A stretch of DNA of 64,000 nucleotides from Eledone cirrhosa (taxonomy: Eukaryota): contig OZ024744.1 in assembly GCA_964016885.1 (NCBI GenBank), forward strand, positions 78,492,001 through 78,556,000, in the 5' to 3' direction. A program made the translations under genes and the position numbers. The notes beneath the pieces are model-generated. The model saw only the letters and a list, made by a program, of their open reading frames with translations. It was not told the DNA's origin and did not search any database. Of the stretch, positions 6,222 through 63,712 are shown in pieces. Positions within the stretch are counted from its first letter, which is position 1; each line of letters begins with the position of its first letter.

Positions 6222-7509
6222 AATTTTGGGGTGTTATTTCTGACATATGAAGACATGTGAATAATTTAGCTCAAAAGAATAACAATTATATGAATGCTGC
6301 TCAACACAGAAAGTCTAAAGTTCGTCTTAAACCTGGAGGCTAGTCCATTGTAATGTTAAACCTCCAGCTATTGCTGGTACTCATTTCCAGCTGAGTATAC
6401 TGGAACAATGTGAAATAAGGTGTTTTGCTCAAGAACACAACGCAGCCCAATCCAGAAATTGAACCCATGGCATTATGATCATAAGTCCAATATCCTTAGC
6501 ACTCAGCCGTGTGTCTCCATTATTATTTTGGATTTAAATTATAGATTCTCTTTTTAAAGCTAACAGTATGTAAGGTTTCAGTTGGCTGCTGTGTACGTCC
6601 AATGAGTGATTATACTTTTCCATGTTGGATTTGTGGTTTGTATCTTGAGTTAGATTAGGCTGCCATATTGTGATAAATTCTGTTGAGTTAGATTTGACTC
6701 CCATAATGTGTATATAAAGCTTCCTTGCTGGCTTGTATTTTAATGTTTGTTGAATTAGGTTTGTCTTCTGCATTGAAACAATCGAGTGACTAGATAATGG
6801 ATTCCTTTAAATATGATTTAGAGTTTTTTTTTGAGATTGAGAAACAGTTGCTCACTACAGTAACTGCTGTGTATAATCTCACTTGACCCTATTTTTAAAA
6901 CATTGGGGAGTTTGTTTTGTGAGATTTGATGACAGCACTCAACAGATCAATAAATGCAACTGCCTTTATATTAAGAACAAAGAAATGGAAGTAGTTGTAG
7001 TCATTTTATGTGCTTATGTATGTATTTGTATGTGTAAATATCTATCTCTATATTCAAATGTTTTTTTTTTTTATAAATTATTATTGCAAGATAATTATAG
7101 CAGGAAAATAATTAATACAAATAATTCAAACGGTGGAATAAGTTTTATGCCATGTAGAAGTCTAATATTTTTGGTGAAACTCTTTATTGGCAGAGAAATG
7201 TCAATTGGTGTTGAAAAATAAAATATAAGCACTGTATTTTTTCTAGTACTTCTTTTGTGATATAGAACATCACTAGTTTCCTTCGGAGGCTACTACTGTT
7301 TTAGTATATGAATTTCACACAAGCTTTGTTAATAGTAAGAATTTCTTCTATAAATCATTTACTACTTGTCATTAGTCATTATTGACCAATTACTTGTAAA
7401 TAACGAGGTGTGCTAATTAGGAAACATAAGCATAGTGAAAAAACGAAGTTGTTGATCATGCATTGATGATAATAAACAGTTAAAAATTTCCCTTTTGTTT
7501 CATTCTTAG

Positions 7510-13948: not shown

Positions 13949-14315
13949 TATATATATATCATCATCATCATCACCATCATTTAATGTCCTTTTCTCCATG
14001 CTAATCCTAGATGGGTGGCCCCGTTTGGGGCAAGTTGGGTCCAGTGACTCCAGAACTGTTTCTGGCCTAGTTTCTACGGTTGTCTACAACATTTACAGTG
14101 TGTGGTGGGTACTTTTTGTTGTGACTCCTACATGACCACTTTATAGTGTAGGCTGGGTACTTTTTGTTGTGACTCCTACAAGACCACTTTATAGTGTAGG
14201 CTGGATACTTTTTATCATGACACCTATACAACCAAATTAGTGTAGGCTGGGTGCTTTTTGCTGTGTCGCCATCACAACCACTTTATAGTGAAAGCTGGGC
14301 GACTTTTGTCATATC

Positions 14316-17132: not shown

Positions 17133-19338
17133 ACAAACAAAAGTACACTTGAATGTGAATGTTGTATGTAAAGGATGGATAAACAAACAGGCAGGCAGGC
17201 AGATAGACAAACAGACACAAATTACATTAGGGTGGCTAGTTGAGAATTATAGAACTGAGGAGTAAAGAAAATTGATATGTAACTAGAAGTGGGAGGATAT
17301 TGAGCAGTGAAGTCTTAAAGACAGATATATATTTTCCAATATTTCACGCATGCTATTCACAACACTTGATCTATGGGGTTGTAGGATAATACTGGAAAAA
17401 TAGTTGAGTACATTTAGTGACAATTGTTGTTGTTGTTGTTGTTTAACCTTTGGTCAGTCCTGATCTAGCAGACCAATGATCAAACATTTTCCAACTGTCT
17501 CTGGGTTGTGTATTGCCAGAAATGGAGAGTTGGCAGCTGAGTTTTTACTGCCCCCTATAAACATGCTCTATATCATCATCATCGTTTAACATCCATCTGC
17601 CACTCTAGCATGGCTAGGATGGTCGGTTTGTGAGGGATCAGGTTGGGGGACCGTGAATTCGCTCACACAGAACTGTTCTTGCTAGGTTTCTACAGCAGGA
17701 TGCTCTTCCGTACTCCAACCACATTTACAGTGTATGCTGGGTGCTTTTTGCCATGTCACCTATACGACCACTTTACAGTGTTGACTGGGTGCTTTTTTTT
17801 TGTGACACCTACACGATCACTTTACAGTGTTGGCTGGGTGCTTTTTGTCATGACACCTACATGACCACTTTACAGTGCGGGCTAGGTGGATTTTGTTGTG
17901 ACACCTACATGACCACTTTATATGATGTGTGCAATACAATCACCAATTTTCTTCCAGCTTCTTGCTTTCCTGACCCCTACAATTTGTAAAAATTCAAAAG
18001 TGATATATAAATCATCTTTCACCTTGAATTATGTTCTCTGATTTGTCCTTTCCATTCTCAGTAACCCCTTGCATTTTAGTGGCTTTATTGCCTTGTTTGT
18101 GGGGAGCAAAAAACAAGCAAACAAGAATTCCCCTTTGAAGTATCTTCGTCATGGCACTGGCACCACTAAATCAATGTAGGTGTAAAGGTGTCAGTAGAGT
18201 ACTATAATTGTTCAAACTGTTCACCTAAATATTCCAGTATGTATCTGCTTTGGGATCCTGCAGCTACTGTTGGTATTGACCTCTACATCTGTAAGTAACT
18301 TAAGGCAAATCTCTCTCTTCTATGAAATCCAAGACATGTCTGTCTTGATATTTGGCATTTACTGGTAGCGTTGACCTCTACATCTGTAAGTAGCTTAAGG
18401 CAAGTCTGTCATCATCATTGTTTAACATCTATATTCCATGCTTGCATGGTTTAGACAGGTTGTCATGTTATGAGAAAAGTCAGATCAGGTGGCCATATCT
18501 TGCTCATATGGAACTGTATTATGGCTTGGTTCCTACAGCTAGATGCCTTCCTAAAGCCAAACACATTAGAGTGTGGACTGGGTGCTTTTTATAGTGGCAC
18601 CAAAACGACCATCTAACATTGTGGACAGGGTGCTTTTTCATTTTGTCAGTAGCACAACCACCTTACAGGGTAAAATGGGCACTTTTTGTCATGTCACCAA
18701 CATGACCACTTTACAGGGTGGACTTTATGCTTTTGTTGTTGTGGCACCAGCTCTGTCACGATATAGAATAAAGTGATTTTTGTCATGACAGCAACATTGT
18801 GGGAGAGCAGATGTGAAGCATGTCCAGCTTTCCATACTTGTATGCATGGGTTGGACAGAAGAGGTGTGTCAATGAAATTGTCAACTAACCTTGATTTCCA
18901 GCTCAACACACTCAAACTAATCTTCGTTTTCACGTTTTCCAGCACATTTTAAAATGTACAGAGATTTCTGAGTCTATGACATGACTAAACATTCACACTA
19001 TGCTAAATGTATATGTAAAATATGTAGCAGCTGTTATGTATGTCTGTATTGGATATCAATAGAGAGTGTTGGTTAATATTTTAATATTTGATATCTTTGT
19101 TTGTCAGTCTTTTAAATCTTGTAGAATTTCCAGATTTTGAACTTTTAACTAAATTCTTTCGGTAATTTATTCATTTGGACATGTTTTGTTAAGAATATGT
19201 TAAAAGAGTAAACACCATCAAAAGATACGCAAGTAACAATAAGGATGATGATAGTGATGAAGAAGATTTCTTAATTAAGGAACATTTTGGAAGAGACAAA
19301 TATATTGCTGATACTTATTTTATGTTATTATTTTCAAG

Positions 19339-28176: not shown

Positions 28177-28735
28177 AAAGTGGTCATGTAGGTGTCACTC
28201 ACTGTAAGCTAGTCGTGTGGGTGTCACGACAAAAAGCACCCAGTCTACACTGTAAAGTGATCGTGTAGGTGTCACAACAAAAGCACCCAGCCCACACTGT
28301 AAAGTCATGTAAGTGTCATGACAAAAAGTGCTCAGCCTACACTGTAAAGTGGTCATGTAGATATCACAACAAAAGGCATCCAGCCCACTCTGTAAAGTCG
28401 TTGTGTAGGGGACATGACAAAAGGAGTTCAGCCTACACTGTAAAGTGGTCATGTAGATATCACAACAAAAGGCATCCAGCCCACTCTGTAAAGTCGTTGT
28501 GTAGGGGACATGACAAAAGGAGTTCAGCCTACACTGTAAAGTGGTCATGTAGATATCACAACAAAAGGCATCCAGCCCACTCTGTAAAGTCGTTGTGTAG
28601 GTGACATGACAAAAGGAGTTCAGTCTACACTGTAAAGTGGTCATGTAGGTGTCACAACAAAAAGCACCCGGTCTACACTGTAAAGTAGTTGTGTAGGTGT
28701 CAACAAAAAGCACCCAGCACACCCTGTAAATGTGA
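28177..28735 (-). repeat. 48-bp minisatellite inside an RTE-tail SINE, with 96-bp higher-order dimer
   Basis: About 12 units of ACACCTACATGACCACTTTACAGTGTAGGCTGGGTGCTTTTTGTCGTG type; ATATCACAAC recurs at 28361, 28457, 28553. Confidence 0.93.
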
Positions 28736-51806: not shown

Positions 51807-52069
51807 CTTTTTATGTCGACTTTTCTATGCTGGCATGAGTTGGATGGGACTTTTTGAGGTAATGTATTTCAGCTGGTTGCCCTTCGCATCTTCCAAAATG
51901 CAGAGATACGGTGTCATCATCATTTTATGTCCATTTTCCCACACTACCATAAGTTAGATGAGTTGTCCTGATGTGGGCAATATTAGGTCACGTGACCATG
52001 TCTTGCTCACAAAGAATTGATTTTGGCTTGGTTTCTACAACTGGATGCCCTTCCTAACAACAACCTCAT

Positions 52070-52712
52070 TTACACTGAGTACTGGGTGCTTTTTGTTCTG
52101 TCACCTACACGACGACTTTGCAGCGTGTACTGGGTGCTTTTTGCCATGACACCTACATGACCACATTACAGTGTGGGTTGGGTGCTTTTTGTCTTGACAC
52201 CTGCGTGACAACTTTACAGTGTGGGCTGGGCACTTTTGCTGTACATGACCACTTTACAATGTGTACTAGCTGTTTTTTGCCATGACATCTACATGACCAC
52301 ATTACAGTGTGGGCTGGGTACTTTTTGTTGTGTCACCTACACGACCACTTTACAGCGTGTACTGGGTGCTTTTTGCCATGACACCTACATGACCACATTA
52401 CAGTGTGGATTGGGTGCTTTTTGTCTTGACACCTGCGTGACAACTTTACAGTGTGGGCTGGGCACTTTTGCTGTACATGACCACTTTACAATGTGTACTA
52501 GCTGTTTTTTGCCATGACGCCCACATGACCACATTACAGTGTGGACTGGGCACTTTTGCTGTACACAACCACTTTACAGCGTGTATTGGCTGCTTTTTGC
52601 CATGACACCAACATGAACACATTACAATGTGGGCTGAGTGCTTTTTTTGTGACACACCTACACGACCACTTTACAGTATGGGCTGGGTGCATTTTGTTGT
52701 GACACCTACACG
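52070..52712 (+). repeat. 48-bp minisatellite inside an RTE-tail SINE, with 232-bp higher-order duplication
   Basis: About 13 units; CTGCGTGACA recurs at 52201 and 52433. Confidence 0.93.
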
Positions 52713-55270: not shown

Positions 55271-55879
55271 ACTTTGCCAATAATTCTTGGTATTTTAGAA
55301 TTTTATTCTGTTTGTTTATGAAAGCATTGAGTCTTACAAAGTGAGAGGTGGAGAAGAAGTTTAGAGAGCAAGAAGGTATTTATCAAGATTTAGATCTCAG
55401 GAGTTTCAGAATGGCTGTACATGAATATTTGTAAACAAAGCCTTTGAATAAACTTAGTGAAAATTAAAGATATATCAAGCCCACCCTTTAAGGTGGACAT
55501 ATTTTTGAGAAAAGAACACCAAATCTACCCTGTAAAGTGGTTATGTTGGTGACATAGCAAAAAGCGCCTAGTCCACCCTGTTAGGTGGTTAATTTGGTGC
55601 CTCAATAAAGAGCACCCAGTCCACACCATAACATGGTTGACATTAAGAAGAGCATCCAGCCATTGAAACCAAGCCAGAATACAGATCCATATGAGCAAGA
55701 TGTGGTCAAATGACCTGACTTATCTCATAATATGACAACCATGTAAGAGCTGTAGAACCAAGCCATCCATATGAGCAAGATATGGTCACCTGACCTGGCT
55801 TATCTCATATGACAATCCATCTAACCCATTCAAGCATGGGCAATAGACATTAAACAGTGATGAGGATGTTGATACATAC

Positions 55880-56448
55880 ATATCTTATCTTATCTTCTTA
55901 TCTGTCCTGTAGTCTGATGGACTGTTGGGGTGCCACAGATGATCTGGCAACCAGCTCCAGCCATTCCTCTCGCATCTCCACCCTCCTCATGGTTGCACCC
56001 ATCCTCATGCCTATCCATTCCGGGATGTTGTCCTCCCATCTCTTTCTCTATCTACCTCTCTTCCTTCTTCCTTGTACTATTCCCTGTAAGACAGTCTTGG
56101 TAAGCCCTGAAGATCTTGTCACGTGCTCGTACCATCTCAATTTCAGTTTTTTCACAAAGGTCAACAGGTCTTTGTAGAGCCCGATGGCTTGCTAAATTCT
56201 GTTTCGCACCTCCTCATTGGAGATGCAGTCTCTGTAAGTGGTGCCAAGGAGCTTTCTAAAGTATCTCATCTTCATAGCCTGTATTCTTCTCTCCAGATCT
56301 GTTGTTATGTTGTTATTGTCCAAGACTCAGAGGCATACAAGAATATGGACATGACCAGAGAGCGCAACCGTCTGATCTTTGAGCTGATGGCTATGTTCTT
56401 GTCATTTCAGATGGTCTTAAGTTTTGTAAGTGCTGCTGTGGTTTGGGC
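55880..56448 (-). mobile_element. RTE-type LINE 3' fragment
   Basis: Minus translation RRIQAMKMRYFRKLLG..YRD..SNEEVRNRI..KLKLRWYEHVTRSSGLTKTVLQG..RKRGR..RWEDNI; (TAAGA)n-like tail. Confidence 0.85.
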
Positions 56449-57294
56449 ATATATATACATACACACATATATGTATATATATATATGTGTGTATATGTGT
56501 GTGTGTGTATAAATATATATATATATATATCAGATAGAGTGTGCTAAAATACCAGGTGGACTATAACCCACCAGAGTACTCGATACTTTGGGTAGTAGAG
56601 TGGGTAATAGGAAAAGATGCAGGACCCTGATGGCCGAGCTCCAGCCGTTTCGACAGCTAGCTCTGAACTCAGATCTAGCTGTTGAAACAGCCGGAGCTCA
56701 GCCATCGGGGTCTTGAATCTTTTTATACACACACACACACATAGATGTATTCAAAATAGGGTGTGCACAGGATAAAGACAAAGGAAAAAGCAATGGAAAA
56801 ATCGACATTTCTTTAATGAGCATAAAAGTTCGATTTTATTTAGTGTTTACGTTATTTGGTCATCAATTTAGGAATAAAGTAATTAAATGAAACATGCTGA
56901 AATATCCCACACGAGTGTCTATAATTGTCTCATCTTTATTGTTATGAATGCGTGTTACAACTTGGAAATAAGACATACCTTTCGAAATAATATAATATGT
57001 ATAATTGGTATTTATTAGTTGTAGAATTGGCAACAAGGTGAGAGAAATAGTTAGTCTCCACATGGTGTTATTGGTTTTCTGTTCCGAAGTTGAAGTCACC
57101 TGAGAGAGAGTTGCTCTTAATATGTTCACTCCACATGGTGTGGGTGAAATGAAAAGTGGGAGAAGGCAAAATTACCTCTTAACTCCTGGACAGCTGGCTT
57201 TGTAAGAGAGCGGGTACTTTCAGTTTCTCAATTTATAGTCTCCATGGGACGTAACTCTCATTAACTCTCCTTCTCGACCCAAGGGGTCACTACA
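56145..57294 (+). repeat. 1.15-kb direct repeat, copy 1 (LINE fragment + microsatellites + hairpin element + unique DNA + LTR)
   Basis: Co-linear with 61622-62771 at constant offset 5477, no indels, 5 substitutions seen. Confidence 0.97.
57020..57294 (-). repeat. 3' LTR (~275 bp)
   Basis: TGTAG...CTACA termini; abuts PPT (minus strand GGAGGAGGGAAT, 57295-57306); TATAAA on minus strand near 57233-57238; outer boundary inferred from the terminal inverted repeat. Confidence 0.75.
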
Positions 57295-57503
57295 ATTCCC
57301 TCCTCCAGACGATAGGCGAACAACCCGAAGGTAATTGTAGCGAACCCGCAAGAATGGGATCAAGGCAAAGGTATGAAAAAGGTATATGCATACACAATAC
57401 ACAAAAAAGAAATTCTATAGTTAAAGAAACATTCAACTGTTAAGAAACAAGGTAAAGAAAAGCATGTAATACAAAATACAAAAAAGGCTCCATAGTGACC
57501 AGT

Positions 57504-60500
57504 TCAGATGAAAACTGTTTGACAAAGTCTTTCGGGCCAGTGGACTCTTCGACCGGCACGGGTCGTGGTCTTGTATGTAGGTGAAGGTGGAGCAGAAGGA
57601 GCAGGTGACTGTACAATAGAGAAAGAAGGGGGTATTTGTGGATCAGGTGTATGAGCGTCTGTGAATGCCCTTTTCAGTCTGTCAACCGATGCCTTAATGT
57701 CTACAGTAAAATGTTTGTCAGCATGTGCTAACACACGGTAGGGTCCAGAGTACGGTTGTGTGAGAGGTGGTCTAACAGCGTCGTTTTTACAAAGACAAGT
57801 GTCCAGGAGGCAATATCCCTCGGGACTGCAATTTTAATAATTTGTTTCCTGGAATCCATAGGTGGTAAGTCCTTAAAATACGAGCGCAAACGAGATACGT
57901 AGGAAAGAGGATCTTGAATAGCAAGATCGACAGGGGCAAGCATTTGCCCAGGCAACACTAGAGGAGCACCATACAACAATTCAGCCGGGAAGAACCCAAG
58001 GTCCTCCTTTATTGATGACTGAATTCCTAACAACACAATAGGAAGGTACTCGCTCCAACGTAGAGAGTCTGGATAGGCGTGAAGAGAGGTCTTTAATTGG
58101 CGGTGAAAATGCTCCACCATTCCGTTTGAAGCAGGATGGTAAGATGTGGTCCGAATACGTTGAGCGCCAATAATTTTTGTCAGCTCTGAGAAAAGATGTG
58201 ATTCAAACTGCCTACCACGGTCTGTAGTAATTGTGGTTGGCATGCCATAGTGGGCAATCCACCCTGATACCAGGGCACGCGCTATCGTCTCGGCGGTAAT
58301 GTCCTTTAAAAGGATGGCTTCAGGCCATTGCGAAAAACGATCAATGCAGGTCAAAAGGTAAGAATATCCACTACTGACTAGCCAAAGTCCAACAATATCG
58401 ATGTGGATGTGTCGAAAACGAGCAACCGGAGTACTGAAAGTACCAAGTGGAGTCCGGATGTGTCTGTGGACTTTAGATTTTTGACACTGTATGCAGGAAC
58501 AGCACCAAGCAATAATTTCGCACCTCATATTTGGCCAGAAAAATCTAGCCGTTATGAGCTTTACTGTGGCTGAAGATCCTGGGTGATAAATGCTGTGCAA
58601 AGCAAGGAACAGAATTCGACGGTGAGTCTCGGGAACATAAGGTCATGGTGAATCCATAAATACATCGCAGAGAATCTGCCTGTTGGTAGTCAACAAGGGC
58701 AGATATTTCAGGTTGCAAGTCACAAATTTGGGTGATGAAGTGTCCAACGATTCGAGTGCAGGTTGATCTGCTGCCAAATGACTTAAATCTATCTCCTGGG
58801 ATGATGAAATCGAGCTGATTGGCAAGCGTAACAAGGCGTCTGCAGCTGTATTTAGTGAGCCAGAAATGTGTTGGATATCATCGGTAAACAGCGAAATGTA
58901 ATCGAGGTGCCTTGTCTCTCTGGGCGAATATCTGTCGGCTTTAGCCTCAAAGCGAAGGACAGAGGTTTGTTGTCAGTGAAAACTGTAAAATTTCTTCCCT
59001 CAAGAATATGAGAAAAATGTTTCACCGACAGATATATGGCTAATAACTCCTGGCCAAACGTGCTGTAACGAGTTTCTGCCGGTTTCAACTTCCTGGAGAA
59101 AAATACCAAAGGTTGTCGGTTTCCAGCGTTATACTGTTGTAAAACTGCTCCCACAGCAGTATCAGATGCATCGACACAAAGCGAAAGCTTGGCATCTGGT
59201 ATTGGGTGGGCTAGCAAAGATGAATTAGCAAGTGCTGTCTTGACAGCCTGGAAATCTTCGAGTTGTCCTTGTGTCAAGGAAATATCCTCATTCTTCTTAC
59301 GACGATCTTTCAAAATCTCGGTAAGGGAAAACAGTAATTTAGCACATTGAGGAACGAAATGCCTATAGAAATTGATTTGGCCTAGGAAGTGATGCAACTA
59401 GCGAAGTGAGGTAGGCGGAGGTAAATCCTGTATAGCCTTAACTCGCTGTGGAAGGGGCCGAATACCCTCAGCATCGATGATGTGACCTAAAAAATTCAGT
59501 GAAGCGGATCCGAAAACACACTTTGCGGGATTCACTCGAATGCGGTAATCCTGGAGTCGGTGAAATAAAAGGTTCAGATGACGCATATGCTCTTCTGGAG
59601 AGGAACTAGCGACGAGAAGATCATCTATATATGCATAAACGAAGTCCAGATCACGAGTGACCTCGTCTATGAACTGCTGAAAAGTGCTAGCGGCATTCCT
59701 GAGTCCGAAAGGCATGGTTAAAAACTCGAAGGATCCGAGAGGAGTCGTAATAGCTGTTTTCGGAATGTCTTCCTTCTTGACGGGCATTTAGTGGTAAGCT
59801 CGCACTAAATTGAGTTTGAAGAAAATCTTACAACCCTGCAACGAGGATGCAAAATCCTGGAGGTGGGGAATCGGATATTAACCTCCTATAATCCCCAGTG
59901 GGTCTCCAGTCGCCAGAAGTCTTGGGCACCATATGTAATGGGGAAGCCCAAGGTCTCATGGATGGGCAAATAATGCCCAGCTGCAGCATATGGTCGAACT
60001 CGGACCGTGCTACCTTTAACTTGTCCGTCGGTAAACGACATGGACGTGAAAATACTGGAGCACCGATTGTAGAAATAAAATGTTCGGTTGAGTGAGTTGG
60101 CTCAGTAACTTGAAAATTTCCATCAGTGAGCTCTGGGAACGATTCTAACAATGAATGGTAGGCGTCTCCAGCGGCAGCAATGAAGAAGGTTGGGCTAACC
60201 GTTGAAGCACCGGCTCTTCGGCCACGAATTGAGAAACTGGTGATGTCATCCACTAGACGTTGGCCTCGGACACCCACAGTCAAGGAGAAATTATGGAGAA
60301 AATCCACTCCTAAGATTGGGTATAGCAAGTCAGCGACCGTAAAAAAATCCATTTAAAATTCCTACGAAGATTTTGGAATTTGAGGGGAAGTGAGATTTGT
60401 CTGTACATCTTTATAGGTGAGTGGTTAACGGCCTGCAGAGTAACAGATGACTCCACGGGGATATCCTTTAGGCAATGGACCGGCCAAATACTACAGGAGG

Positions 60501-60618
60501 CTCCTGTATCCACGAGGAAGGCTCTTCCAGACAGGAGGTCCTTGTTGAAAAAGTGGCGGTTTGGGTGCTTTACGCTGAGGTCAACTGCCGCCCTCAGTGA
60601 ACCTCTCTGGCGTTTCCC
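57504..60618 (-). pseudogene. pol: pol (protease, RT, RNase H, integrase), broken by stops and frameshifts
   Basis: FLVDTGAS (PR); WASPLHMVPK, MPFGLRNA, YIDD (RT); VDAS, ELLAIY, TDNKPL (RNase H); HSIYHPG..CIQC, HIDIVG, TDRGRQF, NGMVE (IN). Confidence 0.95.
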
Positions 60619-61384
60619 GACTTCGCAAACGAACAAGGCTGCACACAGTGGTTCGCGTTCTCAGCAAAACACTCGTGGTGCAGCATAAAGATGAAGCTGG
60701 TGACCTGGGGCGGTGTCTGAAAGAGGTAGATCTACCGCGACTGCGCGAGCGCGAACGAGCATTACCAGAGTCCTTCAGCATCTGTAGCTCCAGGGTGAGT
60801 TCTTGAATAGCTTTTTGCATAGCCATTATAGCTGCGCTGTCTGCTTGAGTTGCCGCACAGGTGGCATGGCCAGGTTGGCCTGAGCTGGGGAAGAAACAAC
60901 AGCAAGGGTCTCGCTGTCTCCAGCACCCGTGACCTCAAAAACCTTGTCCGCAGAGGCGGCCAGTTGGTCCACAGAACATGTATCCTTAATGGGGGCCAAA
61001 ATTGCTTGAACATTGGTCGGTAGCCGCGAGAAAAACAACTGCTTCAATATTACAGTTTCCGCTACCGACCCCTCTGTTAGGTCTTTCATTCGATGTAAGA
61101 GGTCCGATGGAGTGCCATCCCTGATATGCTCCAAATGGACCAGAGCTCTGAAGAGTTTATAGGCGGACTGTGCAGTCCGGCTGACTATTTTAGCCTTCAA
61201 CGACAGTCGGTGTCTCCAATACAAGATCCTTAATAGTTGGAAGAAGTGCCGGAGGAATGGCACTAAGAACGAAGTGACGTTGCTGTGCTTCAGCGATGTT
61301 GTTAGCCTCGAAAAATGCTTCCATTTGAGCGAACCATAACTTCACGTCGCCCGTATAAGTAGGGAGAATAGATTGAGCTGCCAT
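60594..61384 (-). pseudogene. gag: gag (frameshifted) with CHCC zinc finger
   Basis: MAAQSILPTY..LWFAQMEAFF..PSDLLHRM..LFFSRLP; C-x-HH..F..A..C..PC motif near 60635-60686 across a frameshift. Confidence 0.88.
60612..60618 (-). promoter_or_regulatory. -1 ribosomal frameshift slippery site G GGA AAC (gag to pol)
   Basis: Gag frame TCG GGA AAC, pol frame GGG AAA CGC; gag stop 6 codons later; CTGAGG/CCTCAG stem downstream. Confidence 0.8.
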
Positions 61385-61593
61385 TGGTGCAATCTCAGTA
61401 AGCGGCAAAATGCGTCTCCGTAAAGAAAAATACCTCGAACACAAGGAAAGCAAAAACCAACATGGCGCATGGTTTCACGCCCAAAAACTGTTGAAGAAGA
61501 AAGCCGCCATCTTGATATCTTCAAAAATTTCAGCAAAGGAAAAAAAGAAACGTCAAACACTTTTTTTTTTAGTGGTATGTTTACCATATACCA

Positions 61594-61608
61594 ACGTCTG
61601 GGTCACCA
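61594..61608 (-). promoter_or_regulatory. Primer-binding site complementary to tRNA-Trp
   Basis: Minus strand TGGTGACCCAGACGT versus canonical tRNA-Trp PBS TGGTGACCCCGACGT, upstream of gag. Confidence 0.85.
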
Positions 61609-61621
61609 CTTTAACAATTTG

Positions 61622-62771
61622 AGTTTTTTCACAAAGGTCAACAGGTCTTTGTAGAGCCCGATGGCTTGCTAAATTCTGTTTCGCACCTCCTCATTGGAGA
61701 TGCAGTCTCTGTAAGTGGTGCCAAGGAGCTTTCAAAAGTATCTCATCTTCATAGCCTGTATTCTTCTCTCCAGATCTGTTGTTATGTTGTTATTGTCCAA
61801 GACTCAGAGGCATACAAGAATATGGACATGACCAGAGAGCGCAACCGTCTGATCTTTGAGCTGATGGCTATGTTCTTGTCATTTCAGATGGTCTTAAGTT
61901 TTGTAAGTGCTGCTGTGGTTTGGGCATATATATACATACACACATATATGTATATATATATATGTGTGTATATGTGTGTGTGTGTATAAATATATATATA
62001 TATATATCAGATAGAGTGTGCTAAAATACCAGGTGGACTATAACCCACCAGAGTACTCGATACTTTGGGTAGTAGAGTGGGTAATAGGAAAAGATGCAGG
62101 ACCCTGATGGCCGAGCTCCAGCCGTTTCGACAGCTAGCTCTGAACTCAGATCTAGCTGTTGAAACAGCCGGAGCTCAGCCATCGGGGTCTTGAATCTTTT
62201 TATACACACACACACACATAGATGTATTCAAAATAGGGTGTGCACAGGATAAAGACAAAGGAAAAAGCAATGGAAAAATCGACATTTCTTTAATGAGCAT
62301 AAAAGTTCGATTTTATTTAGTGTTTACGTTATTTGGTCATCAATTTAGGAATAAAGTAATTAAATGAAACATGCTGAAATATCCCACACGAGTGTCTATA
62401 ATTGTCTCATCTTTATTGTTATGAATGCGTGTTACAACTTGGAAATAAGACATACCTTTCGAAATAATATAATATGTATAATTGGTATTTATTAGTTGTA
62501 GAATTGGCAACAAGGTGAGAGAAATAGTTAGTCTCCACATGGTGTTATTGGTTTTCTGTTCCGAAGTTGAAGTCACCTGAGAGAGAGTTGCTCTTAATAT
62601 GTTCACTCCACATGGTGTGGGTGAAATGAAAAGTGGGAGAAAGCAAAATTACATCTTAACTCCTGGACAGCTGGCTTTGTAAGAGAGCGGGTACTTTCAG
62701 TTTCTCAATTTATAGTCTCCATGGGATGTAACTCTCATTAACTCTCCTTCTCGACCCAAGGGGTCACTAGA
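61622..62771 (+). repeat. 1.15-kb direct repeat, copy 2
   Basis: Same ORFs recur in the ORF track at +5477 (56544/62021, 56863/62340). Confidence 0.97.
62497..62771 (-). repeat. 5' LTR (~275 bp)
   Basis: Copy of 57020-57294 at offset 5477 with 4 substitutions. Confidence 0.75.
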
Positions 62772-63619
62772 GTTCCATCTCCTCAGTCAATATGGGCTGA
62801 AGTCCAAACTGCAGACAAAGAAGAATGACACTGATGTGTAAATAAGTTAAGAAGGAAGAATAAAAGAAGACAGACTGGGTGGAGTGATGTCTATTATATG
62901 CAGATATTACTACAACAGAAGTCTTATAACGAAAAGAGAATCAAATGCCTACTTATACCTTTTAATAATTACAGGTTGAAACATCTATGGACCTTGTTTA
63001 TCACAAACAATTGTATAATTTAATTCCCTGTAGAGGAGGTCTTAAGAAAATACCTTGGTCGGTGTGGTCCTTCTTCTGTACTTGCTGTGACAGGCTTCCG
63101 ACATCCTTTTTAACACTCAATACGATATAAACACATATTTATTGTTATAAAGCCGAATTTCTATACATACAGGAGGATATAAGGAATGAAAGCAATTACT
63201 GGCCGGTAAATTGAAGGTAGGCAGGTACTGCCTGGAAGAAAACAGGAAATATTGAATATCTCATATCGCAACAGAACAATTCCTGAAATGTGGAATATGT
63301 CTCGTTGATAAATGTTTAGTTTTTCCTTACAGGATTATATAAGGATTACAGTAGGAGCTATCCTGTAGTAGGTCTTCTCATATTGCTGGCCAGAGTCTTA
63401 TCTCCCATGTGCTGGCAGGTTTTCACGACGAGGCGACAATGTATTCATACGCGATTTAATACAATTGGTTTGTTTAACCAAATCACATATGAAATATTGC
63501 TATTGCAATTTTATGAAGTAGTTCCGCTACATCCTCATAAGGCCTCACCATTCATATTTAGAGATTAGGATTGCTGTTCCTTCCAATCACTCCTTTCCAT
63601 GTCGGCCAGTCAGCGAGGC

Positions 63620-63646
63620 AGAGGAGGAGGAGGATGAGGAGACGGC

Positions 63647-63712
<66 letters not shown>
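63620..63712 (+). repeat. Compound (GAG)n(GGC)n(GAC)n triplet repeat
   Basis: Direct observation. Confidence 0.95.

Follow-up and report, generated by a model that had tools for sequence, protein, structure and literature searches.

A host-flank copy between the primer-binding site and the 5' LTR of a decayed CsRn1-like Ty3/Gypsy element in Eledone cirrhosa

How does host DNA from one side of an LTR retrotransposon come to lie inside the element at its other end? The question is raised by a locus in a 64,000-nt stretch of the Eledone cirrhosa genome (the window), where a direct repeat with copies at 56138–57294 and 61615–62771 brackets gag-pol. The copies are 1157 bp long, lie at an offset of 5477 and show no indels. 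A preliminary description of the locus had recognized this indel-free repeat and named five substitutions from position 56145 onward; the true start is 56138/61615, and a sixth difference at 56144/61621 joins the five, all of which were recovered (56144, 56257, 57165, 57176, 57250, and 57293 in left coordinates). Four differences lie within the 130 bp on the U3 side of the LTR, and the order of parts in element orientation is LTR-flank-PBS-gag-pol-PPT-LTR-flank, both as previously proposed. As argued below, the locus records a real event, most probably an isolated accident of repair in a dead element, resembling the known conversion of plant LTRs into their flanks.

The assignment of the element to Gypsy was confirmed by an RT-RNase H-integrase order between direct LTRs with a PBS and a PPT. 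Pfam matches, found in four of the ten frame pieces scanned, follow the Ty3/Gypsy order on the minus strand (RVT_1, RT_RNaseH, Integrase_H2C2, rve), with DUF7041 in addition. Judged by Pfam and open frames, the gag-pol region (57311–61480, minus strand) is decayed into many frame pieces with similarity to Gag (DUF7041), RT, RNase H, and integrase, the longest open frame measuring 304 aa. The polypurine tract (57295–57310, minus strand) is evident in the sequence, and an identical tract adjoins the 3' LTRs of family members. Compared with family copies, the leader carries a private deletion of ~140 bp (61446/61447). The PBS (61594–61608, minus strand) is complementary at 14 of 15 bases to the 3' end of tRNA-Trp, as given by the host tRNA-Trp(CCA) gene in L122 plus the CCA that is added to tRNA 3' ends. 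ARAGORN detected one tRNA in L122 and none in the three other candidate loci (3/3). Dense clusters of the tRNA-Trp 3'-end motif occur elsewhere in the genome (G000:C4:353.39–353.49 Mb and 277.41–277.44 Mb), and the one copy checked is a full tRNA-Trp gene.

These features point to a known clade. As characterized in the available text of PMC2582038, CsRn1-clade elements combine a tRNA-Trp PBS, a 4-bp target duplication, LTR ends TGT...AAA or TGT...ATA, and a CX2HX9CX3C Gag motif. The ends of the present LTR, TGT...AAA, fall within this definition. Among eight single-LTR loci, the 4-bp target duplication is exact at four, matches at three of four bases at three, and at none of the four at one; it is also exact in L043, L048, L049, and L052, and three of four bases match at the window locus. 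The full Gag motif is found in 8 of 12 regions from the element's own family and in 4/4 sister copies, and it is incomplete in any single frame of the decayed window copy. Judged by PBS, target duplication, and LTR ends, the element thus appears to be a "CsRn1-like" Ty3/Gypsy element. It resembles CsRn1, PwRn1, and AgCR, as described there, in its tRNA-Trp PBS, 4-bp duplication, TGT...AAA ends, and RT-RH-IN order, and the Gag motif of the clade recurs in own-family copies; unlike those elements, the window copy is decayed and carries an additional block of 674 bp of host DNA that separates its PBS from its 5' LTR (PMC2582038).

The length of that block depends on where the LTR ends, for which ~275 bp of LTR and ~880 bp of host flank had been proposed. 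A search of the genome (G000, 3.0 Gb) with this 274-bp LTR as query gave 40 scored matches from 109 candidates, the best outside the window among the matches listed being 97%. When flanks were compared, family similarity reached 56812, which places the 3' LTR at 56812–57294 (483 bp, minus strand, ends TGT...AAA in element orientation), and in 10 of 12 fetched family elements a 5' LTR of 483–486 bp directly follows the PBS. With an LTR of 483 bp, not 275 bp, the copied host block (56138–56811) measures 674 bp, in place of the larger figure. The earlier picture of a host mosaic therefore holds for these 674 bp, and the 209 bp labelled unique host DNA belong to the LTR. A family with a 1.15-kb LTR was ruled out, since 10 of 12 fetched copies carry an LTR of 483–486 bp and neither the long repeat nor an extended U5 was found in any of the 29 evaluable related loci. 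One LTR site (window 57012–57032) is occupied by a tRNA-like SINE or its remnant in L005, L008, L016, L018, L027, L028, L012, L017, and L023. Its variable 5' truncations and boundaries suggest a hot spot that was hit independently several times; in the loci examined it lies in 3' and solo LTRs and in no 5' LTRs, and L043 has it in one LTR only.

Family copies likewise clarify the PBS-side junction. In these copies, a single base separates the PBS from the LTR tip TTTAA; this tip recurs in the window at 61610–61614, where the flank copy adjoins it directly. By comparison with family tips, 5–6 bp of the original 5' LTR are thus retained (61610–61615, minus strand), and the novel junction, 61614/61615, has a microhomology of 0–1 base. 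Filler DNA was ruled out, as the LTR tip meets the flank copy directly. What had been described as a 13-nt junction is not foreign; it consists of one spacer base, 5 bp of LTR end, and the start of the flank copy.

The left copy of the block is the native one, as had been proposed. The 3' part of a LINE (55880–56440, minus strand; at least 40 genomic matches, 79–86%), putatively of the RTE type by the label given in the preliminary description, passes the left repeat boundary uninterrupted. LINE sequence aligns across 56137/56138 in 14/14 fetched related copies, which identifies the left copy as native; a weak RVT_1 match was obtained in one of three LINE relatives scanned. The native flank F (56138–56811, 674 bp), delimited by repeat comparison and host-repeat alignment, comprises a piece of this LINE, AT and CA microsatellites, a hairpin repeat of very high copy number, and one half (the left) of an older host repeat. 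F was the donor of the copy F' (61615–62288), which differs from it at two sites and lies between the PBS and the 5' LTR.

The host repeat also fixes the insertion site. At three unrelated loci (L115, L117, and L119; eight fetched), it runs from the end of F straight into the right flank, its two halves in the window overlapping by the 4-bp target. Both outer flanks therefore belong to one insertion, and a recombinant between two insertions was ruled out, as the two flanks together make up a single host repeat; the element split this older repeat with a 4-bp target duplication. According to intact host-repeat copies, the left target-site copy, TTTC (56808–56811, plus strand), is one base off the right copy, GTTC (62772–62775, plus strand), which forms the first bases of the native right flank and is nearer to the intact repeat. 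F' carries the changed left form, TTTC, at 62285–62288. Because an insertion starts out with two identical target copies, F' derives from the left side and postdates the insertion. A different duplication was seen in L078, a copy of a related family (208–646 versus 6682–7412), where ~293 bp of upstream flank are repeated directly after the 3' LTR and 438 bp are repeated again at 99.7–100% identity; this may be a long target duplication, a local tandem repeat, or an assembly effect.

The direction and relative age of copying can be read from variants within the LTR. In its inner 353 bp, seven rare variants are common to both LTRs and none is unshared; in the outer 130 bp, two are shared and four unshared, with the derived state in the right LTR at three of the latter and in the left LTR at one. 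Polarity was assigned against 28 family loci that are not all independent, informative sites are few, and the contrast between inner and outer parts (Fisher p = 0.021) uses a boundary picked after inspection of the data. The switch point lies at 57098–57165 in left coordinates, or 62575–62642 in right coordinates. The 5' LTR (62289–62771, minus strand) is accordingly a hybrid, ~353 bp overwritten with 3' LTR sequence and an original outer 130 bp with four differences. Divergence is 2/1027 in the copied tract (0.19%; 95% interval 0.02–0.70) and 5/134 outside it (3.7%; 95% interval 1.2–8.7). Ten other two-LTR family copies (10/10) differ at 7–21 of 253–270 sites, in agreement with 3.7%, the older figure. 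Thus, the order of events was insertion with target duplication, divergence of the LTRs, and then copying of part of the LTR, the target copy, and the flank from the left side; sequence from the 3' LTR side overwrote the 5' LTR long after the element had inserted. The locus combines its original target duplication with a nonreciprocal tract of identity in otherwise diverged LTRs, the signature of intra-element gene conversion. The polarity markers, together with contigs across the junction (see below), support the earlier proposal that copying from the 3' LTR side went beyond the end of the LTR, with rejoining at the PBS. That the event was "recent" stands relative to the insertion only, as each flank copy probably carries one derived difference. 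At 56144/61621, the base in the right copy is the more frequent one among LINE copies (8/14), and that in the left copy a rarer one (2/14); another haplotype may have served as donor, or the left base may be a later change.

The locus is a clean natural snapshot of LTR conversion passing the end of the repeat, datable by markers that it carries itself. It also holds a warning for annotation, since LTR finders would report an LTR of 1.15 kb and underestimate the age of the insertion more than 10-fold.

From the order of parts, the polarity, and the junction, we infer a break, an invasion, and a joining; with moderate confidence, we propose break repair in which invasion of the other LTR was followed by synthesis beyond its end and by end-joining beside the PBS. 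A break or gap would have removed most of the 5' LTR; the end retaining LTR homology would have invaded the 3' LTR, on the same chromatid, the sister, or the homologue, and been extended. The PBS-side end, keeping only 5–6 bp of LTR, would have been too short to anneal; synthesis would have continued into the flank, with closure by end-joining (aborted synthesis-dependent strand annealing, SDSA). Lack of homology at the PBS-side end would explain why the junction lies at the LTR edge. A copied tract of ~1.0 kb and a blunt junction fit aborted SDSA as in Drosophila, where, in the gap-repair results given in PMC3962482, aborted SDSA with end-joining was as frequent as complete SDSA and synthesis extended at least 0.9 kb in 80%. 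The likeness extends to one-ended invasion, synthesis of ~1 kb, and nonhomologous closure; unlike that system, the present case concerns a natural locus, a break deduced after the fact, and a donor that is the element's other LTR (PMC3962482).

The closest precedents come from plants. Intra-element LTR conversion is reported to be common in the angiosperms studied, affecting 23% of elements on average with tracts of 222–428 bp, and conversion between internal and flanking DNA was noted in 3 of 77 elements (Vitte and Panaud 2003) and 1 of 53 (Ma et al. 2005), both as cited in PMC5751070. As in those cases, one LTR here overwrites the other, the tract spans a few hundred bases, and copying crosses the LTR boundary into nonhomologous DNA. 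Unlike conversion as PMC5751070 describes it, the flank is a net insertion that replaced no internal sequence and left PBS and tip in place, a feature that the plant cases may share. A search of the literature found no flank copy inserted beside an intact PBS; this result does not establish absence from print, the nearest plant cases being available through the account in PMC5751070.

A single locus cannot separate such one-step repair from two-step, inter-homologue, or cDNA routes. Other routes at the DNA level are less likely: flank-LTR-internal may have been duplicated in tandem, with subsequent LTR-LTR recombination, or nonhomologous exchange may have joined a full allele's internal end to the flank beside a solo LTR on the homologue. 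A solo LTR is a left/right hybrid, so that the clustering of differences is equally predicted; allelic variation could account for the six differences in 1157 bp, and the commoner LINE base at 61621 sits in the right copy. Tandem LTR structures and solo LTRs are also described as segregating at single rice loci (PMC11899658). Against these routes, two events or two haplotypes are required, the junction at the LTR tip is left unexplained, and the intermediate was not found in the assembly. Tandem arrays of LTR retrotransposons that share an LTR, as presented in PMC11899658, are similar to the present locus in involving recombination between both LTRs of one insertion; unlike them, the locus has no second internal region, and the duplicated part is host flank.

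A route through RNA is quite improbable. Here, transcription would read through the 3' LTR, reverse transcriptase would jump to flank RNA 5–6 bases after priming at the PBS, and the cDNA would recombine into the parental 5' LTR rather than integrate. Such a course predicts the exact order, the intact PBS, and the retained LTR tip, and a junction 5–6 bp from the PBS is also expected from a jump just after priming. Insertion of cDNA into existing elements is documented for Tf1 in the findings outlined in PMC11042837, and cDNA is discussed as a conversion template in PMC7251063. A sister family that is young and has a Trp-type PBS offers a potential helper, with open frames of at least 1000 aa in 13 of 150 scored matches and LTR pairs 99.3–100% identical in 4/4 sampled. 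This helper is distant, however, being internally only 80% identical to the window element and having an LTR that does not align with it, and the window copy itself is decayed, with ~140 bp of leader missing. The transcript would have to pass three AATAAA hexamers, three rare steps are required, and a comparable junction is present in 0/29 evaluable related loci. Moreover, the 0–1 base of microhomology compares with a median of 6 at reverse transcriptase switch junctions, as stated in PMC5131818. With 3' transduction and LTR-mediated retroposition, as set out in PMC13317346 and PMC5131818, the locus shares the presence of host DNA inside an LTR element; unlike those products, which lie at new sites with both LTRs new, it has its own flank, its original site, and its original target duplication. 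In line with this difference, the captured flank is native here and its junction was found once genome-wide, in contrast to what characterizes LTR-mediated transduction.

Fusion by the assembly of a full-element haplotype with a solo-LTR haplotype, an alternative that the preliminary description had named, is very improbable and largely refuted at the junction by read-derived contigs. Among 23 sequencing runs considered, three short-read contig sets from one sample (X18, X19, and X20) had a word share of 0.42–0.43; X1–X17 (0.05–0.07) were left out of the contig comparison, and the RAD-seq runs X21 and X22 were uninformative, with zero coverage at the junction. Over the region compared, 61395–61720 (24 of 118 pieces listed), a 67-bp contig of X19 covers 61585–61651 at a depth of 5.58 and a 66-bp contig of X20 covers 61586–61651 at a depth of 7.5, both with 0 differences and with the right-copy base at 61621. 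Shared flank (61622–61700) has a depth of 11.6 in X19 and 15 in X20, and unique right flank 5.28 and 7.65. The native left junction is also present, in X18 (record 7, depth 6.32) and as a loose end in X19. The two-copy depth called for as a check was accordingly seen in these short reads, shared flank being at about the sum of the native and novel junction depths. The novel PBS/flank junction is thus present at about single-locus depth in two of three runs of one sample, which makes an assembly chimera unlikely, and the window contains no N (0 in 64,000 nt). In favor of an artefact, the one informative sample is possibly the assembly's own source, the bridging contigs have a left arm of 29–31 bases, at or just below the 31-base threshold, and no listed contig spans the whole 6.6 kb. 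Among the pieces listed, X18 has no junction contig, and none of the three runs has a contig over the private leader deletion. The hairpin repeat has very high depth and swamps a wide contig comparison, in which the flank/LTR join is uncovered. The missing contigs could be explained if the contig builder or a filter pruned low-depth branches inside multi-copy repeats.

Has the enlarged end spread? In a genome of 2,995,841,428 bases, the junction pattern was found once. The flank-LTR join was detected at no other locus among 40 of 232 candidates scored, nor the flank-leader join among 40 of 317. A survey of the PBS region, whose positive control passed, covered 32 related loci, three of which were set aside because L095 and L096 lack a recognizable PBS or LTR start and L054 lacks a leader; in all 29 evaluable loci, a family LTR comes directly after the PBS region, and eight of them (L044–L051) look like copies of one insertion. 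The latter, in G000:C28 at ~34–54 Mb, are at least eight family copies with common satellite-like flanks and target site, probably one insertion amplified with its surroundings. The earlier expectation that host DNA would be built into the LTRs of progeny is unsupported: the junction is unique, the element is decayed with a leader ~140 bp short, and all ten dated two-LTR family copies are old. Survival of PBS and tip makes transmission of the enlarged end conceivable in principle, but such transmission is unlikely and was not observed, and the rearranged element is probably a dead end, with no known function.

A broader idea, which we regard as decidedly doubtful, is that flank capture at the U5 tip recurs and that LTRs thereby swap their inner ends, through over-run of the LTR or a jump of reverse transcriptase after priming on readthrough RNA; the window locus would then be a frozen intermediate and related subfamilies propagated earlier captures. 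If so, the PBS and the terminal 5–6 bp needed for integration would survive and progeny would inherit a new U5, and recurrent captures, by keeping PBS and LTR tip, would offer a concrete route to fast turnover of LTR sequence. Sister subfamilies (L083–L099 and L102, compared with window 56812–57103) have the leader, the LTR's outer 190 bp, and the TTTA tip in common. Their inner LTR parts are unalignable with the window family (z from -1.2 to 0.9 for eight sister LTRs, versus 15–75 among themselves). Together with the shared tip and outer LTR, this is one suggestive observation for recurrent capture.

Several further repeats were noted. In a sister subfamily, 23 copies of a 57-bp unit give an LTR of ~1.5 kb at both element ends (L086:6561–8103 and 332–1874; L092). 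Within the window, a dispersed tandem repeat family with a 48-bp unit occurs on both strands (14092–14307, 17718–17920, 28200–28730, 52069–52710, and 55511–55624), and a multi-copy SINE, which we take to resemble the SINEs of octopus genomes, is spread throughout. Finally, a compound CGG/CGA trinucleotide repeat lies at 63643–63712 in AT-rich surroundings.
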